A DNA stretch of 60,522 nt, filler included. It is 9 parts of 9 records of this genome, joined end to end, with 100 filler letters (N's around TTAATTAATTAA, not from the genome) between each part and the next. Parts side by side here need not be neighbours in the genome. Positions count along the whole stretch, not along the records: positions 54,339 to 60,522 come from SRR31156797_21205; 8 more parts are not named here. One strand, written 5' to 3'. Within the stretch, counting starts at the first letter, position 1. Each line of letters opens with the position of its first letter. A model generated the notes under the pieces. The model saw only the letters and a program-made list of their open reading frames with translations, was not told the origin of the DNA and did no database searches. Made by a program: the position numbers and the translations under genes. Positions 56,598 through 59,497 of this stretch are shown piece by piece.

Positions 56598-57266
56598 TTA
56601 TCTCCATTGTATATCAATATCATTTGTTAACAAACTTTTATCAAATAGTTTGTTTGAACTTACAAGATTTGATAAATTTTCCGTTTCAACAAAATTCTGA
56701 ATGTAAAAAGTTTTATTATAACCATTGGTTTTTAGAACTTTTTGCATTTCATTTATATCATTTTCATTTAACAAATCTTCATGTAAAGTTGTTCTTACTT
56801 CATATTCAATATTTGAGTTAATTAAAGTTGATAAAGTATTTAAAAATCTGTTATAAAACTTTGTTTTTGTTACTTCTTTAAACTTACTTTCATTTGCTTT
56901 AAAGTCTAATGCAACAAAATCAACCAACTCTTCATCAATAAGATCAGAAATAAGCTCAGGATTCGTTCCATTTGTATCAACCTTTACTTTAAACCCAAGT
57001 TTTTTAATCAAAGTACAGATATTAAGTAGATTATAGTTTGTTGACTCGCCACCACTTAAAACAACTGCATCTAGTAACCCTACTCTTCTTTTTAAGAAAT
57101 CTAAAAAATCAACTATTGTGTATCCACCTGTTTTAGCATCAACAATTTGTGGGTTATAACAATACTTACATCTCATATTGCATGACACAAACCATGCAAT
57201 ACAAGATAAATGATCTTTATAATCAACCGTAGTAAAAGGTGTTATATTATAAATTATTTTTTTCAA
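56598..57266 (-). CDS. nrdG: Class III ribonucleotide reductase activase (radical SAM)
   Basis: CNMRCKYCYN, VVLSGGE, DTNG, YEVRTT; operonic with nrdD. Confidence 0.93.
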   Translation of the reverse strand: MKKIIYNITPFTTVDYKDHLSCIAWFVSCNMRCKYCYNPQIVDAKTGGYTIVDFLDFLKRRVGLLDAVVLSGGESTNYNLLNICTLIKKLGFKVKVDTNGTNPELISDLIDEELVDFVALDFKANESKFKEVTKTKFYNRFLNTLSTLINSNIEYEVRTTLHEDLLNENDINEMQKVLKTNGYNKTFYIQNFVETENLSNLVSSNKLFDKSLLTNDIDIQWR

Positions 57267-57405
57267 CGAACTTCACTCTTTGTTGATGCTCACCTTTTTT
57301 ACCAATATTAAAACTCTCAACTGGTCTATGGTAACCCATAACTCTAGTGTAAACTATACATTTTGTTCTTTTTTCTTTTAATTTGCTAGGCTCTAAGCTT
57401 TTCAT
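57247..57405 (-). CDS. Stand-alone glycyl-radical domain of class III RNR (52 aa), absent from ORF track
   Basis: MKSLEPSKLKEKRTKCIVYTRVMGYHRPVESFNIGKKGEHQQRVKFVEKNNL; GAGGAG RBS at 57413-57418; overlaps both neighbours by 20 nt. Confidence 0.92.
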   Translation of the reverse strand: MKSLEPSKLKEKRTKCIVYTRVMGYHRPVESFNIGKKGEHQQRVKFVEKNNL

Positions 57406-59497
57406 TTTTTAACTCCTCATCTAATAGTTCTTGGTCACACTTAGGACAATATTCGTATTCACCATTAATATATCCATGTTTTGGACAAATAGAAAATACA
57501 GGTGATATTGTGATATAAGGTAAAGTGTAGTTTGATATAACATTTTTAATCAATTTTCTACAAGCTTCTATTGAACTGATTTTTTCCCTCATATATAAGT
57601 GTAACACCGTTCCACCTGTATATTTACCTTGTAAATCATCTTGTAAATCCAAGGCTTCAAAAACATCATCTGTAAAATCTACAGGAAGTTGAGAAGAGTT
57701 AGTATAAAAAATATTGCTTCCAAATCCAGCTTGTAATATATCACTGAATCTTTTTTTATCCTCTTTTGCAAATCTGTATGTTGTACCTTCTGCAGGTGTT
57801 GCTTCAAGGTTGTATAGATTTCCTGTCTCTTCTTGATACTCAACCATTTTATTTCTCATAAAGTCTAATATCTCTGTTGCTAACTCAATACCTTCTCTTT
57901 TTGAAATATCAAGTCTTTTCTCAGTTAAATTAACTAACATCTCATTGATACCATTTACACCAATAGTTGAAAAATGGTTGTTAAAGCTTGGTAAATATCT
58001 TTTTGTATATGGAAATAATCCTCTTTCATAAAGATCGTTTATAAATACTCTTTTTTTCTCTAGTGTTGATTTTGCTAAATCCATTAGTTCTTCTAGTCTT
58101 TTTAAAAGAGCATCTTTGTTATTTTTATATAAATATCCTAATCTAGCCATATTAATTGTAACTACACCAATACTTCCTGTCATCTCTGCACTACCAAAAA
58201 GTCCACCACCTCTTTTTAGAAGTTCTCTTAAATCAAGTTGTAATCTGCAACACATAGATCTAACATGTCCAGGTTTATATGCATCTTCGTTTGGAATTAA
58301 TTTTCCATTTTTATCTTTTACATATTGACTTCCGATAAAGTTTTGGAAATATGATGAACCAATTTTTGCACTATTTTCAAATAATAAATCTGTGTTCTCT
58401 CCATACCAATCAAAATCTTCTGTTATGTTTACCGTAGGAATTGGGAAAGTAAAAGGTTGTCCAGTTTTATCACCCTCTGTCATAACTTCATAATAAGCTT
58501 TATTAATCATATTCATCTCTTTTTGAAATGCTTTATATGTCATATCAATAAGATTTTTGTAACCTCTTTCTTCAGCTTTTTTAATCAATTGTTCATTATC
58601 AATATTTTCAAACAAATGTCTTTGGTTTTTAGTTGGAATTTGACCTTTTAAGTCATTTGGAACTGTCCAATCAATTGTAATATTTGTAAATGGACTTTGT
58701 CCCCATCTAGCTGGGACATTAAGATTATAAACAAAACTTCTGATATTCTTTTTTACTTCATTAAATGAAAGATTATCTTTAAATATATAAGGTGCTAAAT
58801 ATGTATCAAAAGATGAGAATGCTTGCGCACCTGCCCACTCACTTTGTAAAATACCTAAGAAGTTAGCCATTTGACCTAAAGCTTCTCTAAAATGGTTTGG
58901 AGCAGTACTTTCTACTCTTCCTCTAACTCCATTAAAACCTTCATCAAGTAAAACTCTTAAACTCCAACCTGCACAATATCCACTTAAACAATCAAGATCA
59001 TGGATGTGATAATCAGCATTCCTATGAGCATAACCTTCCTCTTTAGAATAAATTTTATCTAGCCAATAATTAGCAATGATTTTTCCCGCACTATTATTAA
59101 TAAGACCTGCATGAGAATACCCCGTATTCGAATTTGCTTTAATTCTCCAATCAGTTCCATTAATATATTCTTCAATAGTTTGTGTAGAATTAACATATGT
59201 TGTATCTTCTGATAAACCTAATACATGTTCTCTTTGTAATTTGTGCATATGTCTATAAAGCATAAAAGATTTCATTACATCATAATATCTGGCTTTATAT
59301 AATTCTTGTTCAATATAATCTTGAACATCTTCAACTGCAATAACTCTTTTTTTATTTAATTCTTCAATTACATTAAGATAAATAAGTCCATCATAAGTTG
59401 TATGAACGCTTTTAAATGCTTTTTTTATGGCATCTTCAATTTTATAAGATTGAAATTTTTCGTATGTGCCGTCACGCTTTAGAATATTTTCTAACAT
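57386..59497 (-). CDS. nrdD: Anaerobic (class III) ribonucleoside-triphosphate reductase, large subunit lacking the glycyl-radical loop
   Basis: ATP cone (ILKRDG), HIHDLD, GYCAGW, FPIPT, RSMCCRL, YNLEATPAEG; ends after the CPKH...CPKC Zn site. Confidence 0.95.
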   Translation of the reverse strand: MLENILKRDGTYEKFQSYKIEDAIKKAFKSVHTTYDGLIYLNVIEELNKKRVIAVEDVQDYIEQELYKARYYDVMKSFMLYRHMHKLQREHVLGLSEDTTYVNSTQTIEEYINGTDWRIKANSNTGYSHAGLINNSAGKIIANYWLDKIYSKEEGYAHRNADYHIHDLDCLSGYCAGWSLRVLLDEGFNGVRGRVESTAPNHFREALGQMANFLGILQSEWAGAQAFSSFDTYLAPYIFKDNLSFNEVKKNIRSFVYNLNVPARWGQSPFTNITIDWTVPNDLKGQIPTKNQRHLFENIDNEQLIKKAEERGYKNLIDMTYKAFQKEMNMINKAYYEVMTEGDKTGQPFTFPIPTVNITEDFDWYGENTDLLFENSAKIGSSYFQNFIGSQYVKDKNGKLIPNEDAYKPGHVRSMCCRLQLDLRELLKRGGGLFGSAEMTGSIGVVTINMARLGYLYKNNKDALLKRLEELMDLAKSTLEKKRVFINDLYERGLFPYTKRYLPSFNNHFSTIGVNGINEMLVNLTEKRLDISKREGIELATEILDFMRNKMVEYQEETGNLYNLEATPAEGTTYRFAKEDKKRFSDILQAGFGSNIFYTNSSQLPVDFTDDVFEALDLQDDLQGKYTGGTVLHLYMREKISSIEACRKLIKNVISNYTLPYITISPVFSICPKHGYINGEYEYCPKCDQELLDEELKNEKLRA

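Follow-up and report, generated by a model that had tools for sequence, protein, structure and literature searches.

We describe a locus, in a 60,522-nt stretch of DNA (the window), that in all likelihood encodes an obligate two-subunit class III (anaerobic) ribonucleotide reductase (RNR): the catalytic body, NrdD, lacks the glycyl-radical loop, which is encoded instead by a separate 52-codon gene, here called the tip, next to the activase gene nrdG. Glycyl-radical enzymes are taught as single chains in which the radical loop swings out to the activase and back in to work, and exposure to oxygen destroys them, because the chain is cleaved at the radical. What we report is a real, conserved variant of a well-known enzyme, in two subunits, of which the one that carries the radical also exists as mobile copies. 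The source organism is probably a member of the Arcobacteraceae; the tip shares 94% of its residues with a protein listed by NCBI under Arcobacter arenosus, and the nearest body on our tree, at 85% identity, comes from a Halarcobacter metagenome-assembled genome (MAG).

The features of the locus are given below; coordinates refer to the whole window, and all three genes lie on the minus strand.

57386–59497, minus strand: nrdD body, 703 aa, with ATP-cone, alpha/beta barrel and Zn ribbon and without a glycyl-radical loop; stop codon TAG.
59240–59488, minus strand: ATP-cone, residues 4–86 of the body (PF03477, E 3.7e-17).
58244–58255, minus strand: finger-loop motif M415-C416-C417-R418, of the double-Cys type (from translation and alignments).
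57437–57487, minus strand: Zn-ribbon ligands C671, H674, C684 and C687, all in the body (from alignments).
57413–57418, minus strand: Shine-Dalgarno sequence GAGGAG inside the nrdD coding sequence, 7 nt before the tip ATG at 57405–57403 (from sequence).
57405–57410, minus strand: run of six A at the nrdD/tip junction (from sequence).
57386–57405, minus strand: 20-nt overlap between the end of nrdD and the start of the tip (from the open reading frames, ORFs, and the sequence).
57247–57405, minus strand: tip gene, 52 aa, with the glycyl-radical loop and the NrdD C-terminal tail (from ORF, profiles and alignments).
57334–57336, minus strand: codon of Gly24 (in RVMGY), the predicted radical glycine (from sequence and alignment).
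57247–57266, minus strand: 20-nt overlap between the end of the tip and the start of nrdG, which depends on the TTG start of nrdG.
56598–57266, minus strand: nrdG activase, 222 aa, TTG start (TIGR02495, E 1.1e-55; Pfam Radical_SAM).

The tip ORF is in the +1 frame relative to nrdD, with an in-frame TAA two codons upstream of its ATG. The TTG start of nrdG is backed by relatives, since residue 1 of NrdG aligns at an equal offset in three other loci (L001, L003, L004; tblastn). This layout agrees with the first-pass annotation, which had described a short ORF in another frame, with its own GAGGAG ribosome-binding site and 20-nt overlaps with both nrdD and nrdG. Its statement that NrdD ends shortly past the Zn site without an R-x-x-G-Y motif is likewise borne out—the body stops 16 residues after C687, and the motif is absent.

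Profile searches divide one family between the two proteins. The body matches positions 2–529 of 562 in Pfam NRDD (PF13597, E 1.3e-160) and positions 2–655 of 684 in NCBIfam NF006126 (1083 bits against a cut-off of 548), and it also matches PDB entry 8p23 (E 2.4e-33). The tip's sole Pfam match is the remainder of NRDD, positions 531–562 of 562 (E 3.8e-7; 29.6 bits against a gathering cut-off of 26.2), and on NF006126 it covers positions 649–682 of 684. The three NCBIfam models that the tip matches are all models of whole NrdD, and none is dedicated to it. The tip is thus homologous to the last part of one-chain NrdD. A PDB sequence search with the tip profile—a short query—gave no match at E<=1.

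The MCCR finger loop of the body is invariant in 27 split bodies and 29 fused relatives, and the mean column identity of the body across the 27 split bodies is 80%. The four Zn ligands are invariant among the aligned split bodies (alignment A2) and fused relatives (alignment A4). In the Thermotoga maritima enzyme, Zn is bound by a Cys/His/Cys/Cys motif, as a passage of PMC4493059 describes; the ligand set of the body is of this type, with metal binding itself predicted. In solved enzymes the Zn ribbon lies between the last barrel strand and the C-terminal loop that carries the radical glycine. Because all four ligands are in the body, the zinc site belongs to one chain, and the cut comes directly after it.

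Gly24 is invariant in both tip alignments (A1 and A3). To place the loop, and for that purpose only, we used a model of P0141, a natural fused relative nested among the Arcobacteraceae; its mean predicted local distance difference test score (pLDDT) is 80.1, with the finger loop (419–437) and residues 711–721 below 50. In this model the Gly that corresponds to Gly24 in the alignment sits where the hairpin of strands E697–702 and E705–708 turns (pLDDT of the block, 63). The model superimposes on 8p2s_B with Z 31.1 and a root-mean-square deviation of 2.8 over 553 aligned residues (model range 79–724, through the C-terminus), and on 1h78 with Z 30.7.

The simplest objection to a split gene is that a sequencing or assembly error, or a recent pseudogene, has broken a one-chain nrdD by an extra base in the A-run. 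The run of six A does stand exactly at the junction, and one base less would join the frames. Several observations speak against an error: the contigs of four of four public runs, one of them (X1) possibly the source of this DNA and three (X2–X4) from other studies, have no indel across 57386–57415; the same 20-nt overlap occurs without the A-run in L001, L002 and L004; and the split recurs in nearly all of the relatives described below, with purifying selection on the tip in its own frame. We regard an error as having next to no chance of being the explanation. In two of the runs (X3 and X4) the contigs span nrdG, the tip and the end of nrdD; the RNA origin of these runs is only guessed, and they are unusable as evidence of expression.

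For a wider comparison, one genome per species was scanned with two patterns derived from the tip, and the best 80 of 590 confirmed stretches were taken as a locus set. Such patterns favor split-type sequences, and therefore the less biased genome counts given below were also made. Within this set the tip occupies a stop-to-stop frame of 53–105 codons in 79 of the 80 loci; the remaining locus runs into a contig end, and no fused case occurs. Close relatives thus have a split NrdD and not a continuous one. Of the two outcomes that the first-pass annotation gave as refuting the split, an indel in the A-run and a continuous NrdD in all close relatives, neither was seen. In the 64 loci where nrdD ends at most 400 nt upstream, taken together with the window, the tip frame relative to nrdD is +1 in 35, 0 in 19 and +2 in 11, and the spacing ranges from a 31-nt overlap to a 51-nt gap. 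The frame-0 loci are of the Campylobacter concisus type, in which a single TAA is followed by 9 nt. The start codon of the tip is ATG except for one GTG, and a Shine-Dalgarno-like motif precedes it at 54 of the 65 junctions; the Bacteroidota loci that we looked at (e.g. L020, L026, L040 and L065) have no such motif.

Linkage to nrdD varies as well. nrdD adjoins the tip in 65 of the 80 loci, and nrdG lies directly downstream of the tip in 77, the rest being two loci cut by contig ends and L059, which has no nrdG. Two other ORFs stand between nrdD and the tip in L022 and L032 (110 and 167 aa in the latter; L032:2621-3446). Nine Campylobacter loci with a full 3.5-kb flank have no nrdD upstream; in two such genomes nrdD is on another contig, where it ends after the Zn site and is followed by an unrelated gene, and the tip stays with nrdG.

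These junctions also bear on a second objection, in which a programmed +1 frameshift or stop read-through yields a one-chain NrdD and no separate tip gene truly exists. The sequence of the window would allow a Lys-tRNA to move by +1 from one AAA to the next, with the ATG as the codon read afterwards, and the C. concisus-type loci, with both parts in frame and one TAA plus 9 nt between them, could be read through. Recoding does not suit the relatives, however: they show three frame relations, gaps of up to 51 nt, intervening genes and unlinked positions; an A-run of six or more is present at only 7 of 30 related +1-overlap junctions; the tip has its own start codon and, mostly, its own Shine-Dalgarno-like motif; and for the orphan tips of prophages there is no body with which they could form one chain. 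We consider recoding very unlikely.

The sequence of the tip itself is constrained as a protein. Among 78 distinct DNA versions of its 36 core codons (Arg13–Glu48), 24 columns are invariant in residue, and 23 of these 24 use at least two codons; variable sites number 15, 10 and 35 of 36 at the first, second and third codon positions. The tip frame is under strong purifying selection. Variation is found instead at the cut, in the last ~15 residues of the body and the first ~12 of the tip, and in sequence these ends look like linker remnants. The last CxxC and the radical motif are separated by 7–32 residues (median 12) in 80 fused relatives, and the two ends sum to 30–55 residues (median 35) in the 65 split pairs. 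In 53 distinct pairs the tail of the body is net negative in 50 and the N-terminus of the tip net positive in 48; because the flanks are charged in the same way in fused forms, we draw nothing from this. Taken together, the split is conserved, selected, and independent of frame and linkage.

Two side observations concern the tip and its surroundings. Many tips end in a Cys pair (for example CC or CCK), as in L031:3477-3644, other C. concisus loci, L006, L010, L015 and L058; the tip of the window does not. By analogy, such endings could be redox-active tails like those of class I and II reductases. Secondly, in Campylobacter an ORF that we take from its sequence to be a thiol peroxidase lies divergently upstream of an nrdD-unlinked tip and nrdG (L048:2808-3410, minus strand; L155:3304-3837; L160:3258-3860), a neighbor that hints at a link to oxidative stress.

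We sampled 301 genomes evenly across the class to which a related Malaciobacter genome belongs. The tip has 167 matches, in 146 genomes, and these are the same 146 genomes in which NF006126 scores above its cut-off (lists compared by eye). Among the matches listed (150, in 138 genomes), all lie in open frames of 48–116 codons. The remaining eight genomes comprise six in which the NrdD match ends at profile position 651–669 or is broken by a stop and two with a truly one-chain NrdD (G189 and G085; 893 and 743 aa). The class total is therefore 144 split against 2 fused among the 146 genomes with this NrdD; the split layout is the rule in Campylobacter-class bacteria. Together with the locus counts and the selection on the tip, this sample upholds the central claim of the first-pass annotation, a permanently two-piece class III RNR with the radical loop on its own gene behind its own Shine-Dalgarno sequence, and it shows the two-piece form to be conserved.

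The same counts address a third alternative, in which the tip is a spare part, like GrcA, for a complete one-chain NrdD encoded elsewhere, and the body described here is a decayed or differently used paralogue. A second NrdD could be present elsewhere in the genome of the window; nevertheless, five related genomes that we checked each have a single NrdD match, without the loop, body and tip occur in the same 146 of 301 genomes, and the body keeps its finger loop, its Zn ligands and its high column identity. We judge this alternative highly improbable.

Two further observations stand apart. One genome has two nrdD-tip loci (G302:C1:1340794-1343181 and 1923106-1926325), with one body in two pieces (profile positions 2–457 and 413–664). 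At L089:320-3001, a fused NrdD of 893 aa carries a low-complexity insert of ~180 residues, rich in Asn, Lys and Glu, within or after the ATP-cone.

The picture is mixed outside the class. NrdD of this type is carried by 37 of 401 sampled Bacteroidota genomes: 29 read through to position 680–683 without a stop, 7 look split (only one of these, G005, was inspected) and 1 is partial. In the protein database, 3810 short proteins (28–91 aa) match the tip at E<=1e-3, alongside 694 longer matching clusters; the fused forms include Chitinophaga, Arcticibacter, Chlamydiae, a Rickettsiales MAG and many Actinomycetes. A quick IQ-TREE analysis (LG+G4) of 56 bodies cut at the Zn site places 29 split and 11 fused rows in one clade, with 100% support in the Shimodaira–Hasegawa-like approximate likelihood ratio test (SH-aLRT). 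Its Campylobacterota subclade holds 21 split rows and a single fused one, P0141, and its Bacteroidota subclade holds 8 split and 6 fused rows. At least five changes between the split and fused states are needed, and well-supported branches force three of these, so the chain must have been cut or rejoined on several occasions. One locus, L008, is on a contig binned as Flavobacterium: its body groups with Bacteroidota (84% SH-aLRT with L065), yet its body tail, Shine-Dalgarno-like site and tip are like those of Aliarcobacter. Recombination or mis-binning may explain this, or neither may.

Tips also occur in extra copies. Two or three tip matches are present in 17 of the 146 genomes. Of the six extra copies that we looked at, in genomes whose chromosomal tip keeps nrdG alongside, five are in prophage lysis regions, in three Campylobacter genomes:

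L087:3284-3526, L156:3058-3234, L157:3057-3245, L158:3088-3270 and L159:3063-3245: extra tips in prophage lysis regions, with no nrdD or nrdG beside them.

The gene order in these regions is holin, tip, and then an endolysin or a gene of the phrog_1501 family, with tail genes or an integrase nearby. In genome G004 the extra tip has a holin (phrog_2073, E 6e-30) on one side and an endolysin (phrog_315, E 2e-29) on the other, with tail-fiber genes around them; the two extra tips in each of G102 and G200 adjoin holin-like genes and a phrog_1501 family gene, with either an integrase (phrog_1, E 3e-61) or a tail assembly chaperone in the vicinity. PHROGs searches confirmed the holin beside L087, L156 and L159, the endolysin at L087 and the integrase at L159; the phage context of L157 and L158 was judged by eye from look-alike neighboring ORFs. 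The sixth copy (L086, in genome G003) has no clear phage context beyond a phrog_10774 neighbor and an RNase H.

Viral contigs in IMG/VR give a similar result, with the proviso that some may be prophage or host fragments. All 64 confirmed tip matches (L091–L154) are short open frames of 11–166 codons, and within 4 kb of 62 of the 64, tblastn at 1e-4 finds nothing related to nrdD or nrdG of the window. The exceptions are L114, with nrdD, tip and nrdG together, and L141, with nrdD and tip. Among INPHARED phages, tblastn found no tip match at 1e-3. A gene that encodes the tip alone makes sense only if the tip works with a body encoded elsewhere, and these tip-only prophages and viral contigs suggest a new kind of auxiliary metabolic gene. 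In five viral contigs (L143, L144, L145, L150 and L151) the tip frame stops soon past the radical loop, at 26–34 codons; these may be truncated copies, or the phages may read the stop as sense.

How would such an enzyme work? The tip, translated from its own start codon, would carry the radical glycine, Gly24, and the C-terminal tail; NrdG, a radical S-adenosylmethionine (SAM) activase, would take a hydrogen from Gly24; and the tip would dock non-covalently in the barrel of the body, as the usual beta-hairpin beside Cys416/417. It would then pass the radical to Cys416/417, after which the pair would work like the one-chain enzyme. A passage of PMC9669993, in which the MGCR/MCCR finger-loop motif classes are defined, links the double-Cys finger loop to a reductant mechanism other than formate; the reductant here would be of the thioredoxin type, as proposed for double-Cys enzymes. 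In Prevotella copri NrdD, according to a passage of PMC11226230, the C-terminal radical domain is dynamic and vanishes from the maps in dATP-bound states. Detaching and re-seating the radical part therefore already belongs to the behavior of the one-chain enzyme.

Some points weigh against this proposal and must be considered beside its support. The locus set leans toward split-type sequences by its construction; a +1 slip on the A-run at the window junction could join the frames, so that some one-chain product is possible; a second, one-chain NrdD may exist elsewhere in the window's organism; and the binding of tip to body, the expression of a free peptide, radical formation and reduction of nucleoside triphosphates (NTPs) are all predictions from sequence. 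Three more points weigh specifically against a repair benefit as the reason for the split: the fused form dominates the sampled Bacteroidota (29 of 36), split and fused forms are interleaved on the tree, and the comparisons of oxygen lifestyle that could be made gave no correlate of the split.

Why the split is kept is a separate and harder question. The first-pass annotation had proposed that a microaerophile could replace only the small oxygen-damaged peptide, and this is a plausible benefit. In a broader form—that the split persists because a new 6-kDa radical piece can take the place of one cleaved by O2, or more of it can be provided, prophages being one source, while the 80-kDa body need not be made again—we hold it tentatively, at somewhat below even chances. 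Two observations fit a benefit of peptide replacement, namely the extra tips in 17 of 146 genomes and the orphan tips in prophages and viral contigs. A rival reading accepts the split and explains its retention by activation or dosage instead of repair: a free peptide may be an easier substrate for NrdG than a loop that first has to flip out of the barrel, or the level of the tip may set the amount of active enzyme. It would account for the tip adjoining nrdG (77 of 80 loci) more faithfully than nrdD (65 of 80), for the mobile radical domain that one-chain enzymes need, as described in the P. copri passage (PMC11226230), and for the repeated switches between split and fused, which are expected if either form works. 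Against this, the extra and phage-borne copies fit dosage and replacement equally, and on the present data the rival is not separable from the repair idea; the two are also not exclusive. As the sole reason we think activation or dosage rather unlikely. Replacement after O2 cleavage, easier activation of a free peptide and control of dosage all fit the data. Going further with replacement, the tip might serve as a cartridge for the radical that is exchanged freely: NrdG would activate it away from the enzyme, any body could take it up, and after O2 cleavage it would be thrown away and replaced. Prophages with this gene of 50–60 residues alone would provide it in trans, to sustain or take over host deoxynucleotide (dNTP) synthesis. 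We offer this as speculation, a shade less probable than the general exchange or supply of the radical piece.

The first-pass annotation held that annotation routinely misses the tip, and this does not stand: among the 120 short proteins listed, 30 are named, 29 of them as anaerobic ribonucleoside-triphosphate reductase. The tip is not routinely missed, because 29 of 30 named tips bear the reductase name; instead, databases name it as if it were the whole reductase, and it has no model or name of its own. Current annotation thus gives both pieces one name, and surveys that rely on profiles may take the body for a truncated protein. Our literature searches, which did not cover supplements, found no description of a split class III RNR. 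The first-pass annotation mentioned a similar split in the Neisseria bacilliformis enzyme; the passages citing the paper on that enzyme make no mention of one. In Arcobacter, Sulfurospirillum, C. concisus and their relatives, the anaerobic reductase normally has this split form. With the loop on a separate 6-kDa protein, the activation and repair steps can be mixed, titrated and replaced in vitro, allowing a direct test of both.

The surroundings of the operon add little on regulation. A scan of 56400–59800 found 0 terminator-like sites, and hence none between the genes, and 26 promoter-like sites against 22.8 +/- 6.0 in shuffles. The 200 nt upstream of nrdD (59498–59697) hold no FNR/Nss-type box TTGA-N6-TCAA; the window total is 48 against 49.5 expected. 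The operon is flanked by a convergent 225-aa ORF on the plus strand (55920–56597), which from its sequence we take to be a response regulator, and by a plus-strand ORF that runs off the end of the window (59698–60522), presumably an ornithine carbamoyltransferase.

Finally, we compare the locus with known systems. The one-chain NrdD/NrdG enzymes of P. copri (8p23 and 8p2s), T. maritima (4coi and 4u3e) and phage T4 (1h78) share with it the same profiles, the ATP-cone, barrel, finger loop, Zn ribbon and RVxGY loop, and an adjacent NrdG; the model of the fused relative aligns with them at Z 28–31 through the C-terminus, and the double-Cys finger loop of the body is common to the T. maritima and N. 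bacilliformis type. In contrast to all of these, the break in the chain here comes after the Zn ribbon and before the radical loop, and the radical glycine is on a separately translated 52-aa protein that can be unlinked and multi-copy.

Another RNR whose catalytic chain consists of two polypeptides that must assemble is the class II enzyme NrdJa/NrdJb of Pseudomonas aeruginosa, which a passage of PMC4520616 calls unique among free-living organisms. NrdJa/NrdJb belongs to another, B12-dependent class, however, is cut at another point, and has no radical-bearing residue separated. Among phage families, phrog_4132 (PHROGs, function unknown) is matched by the window's tip (E 1e-8) and by the prophage copies (up to E 1.9e-19); the tip fits it better than phrog_487, a phage NrdD-like family (E 0.0067). 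The phrog_4132 profile has 179 positions, of which only 92–157 are matched across these hits.

A functional parallel is GrcA/YfiD of Escherichia coli, the spare part of pyruvate formate-lyase (PFL), which is likewise a small stand-alone glycyl-radical-loop protein activated by the activase of its parent; by analogy, a similar role for the tip after oxygen damage is conceivable. The two differ in family and in dependence. GrcA/YfiD is a PFL-type radical domain, whereas the tip's only Pfam match is the end of NRDD; and the parent of GrcA keeps a loop of its own, for which GrcA is a back-up, whereas the body here has none and the tip is therefore obligatory. A passage of a June 2026 review (PMC13450708) gives the formate lyases as the only class of glycyl-radical enzymes with identified spare-part proteins. 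If the tip does act as an exchangeable cartridge, class III RNR would become the second glycyl-radical system to have a spare part and the first to have no radical loop other than that of the spare part.

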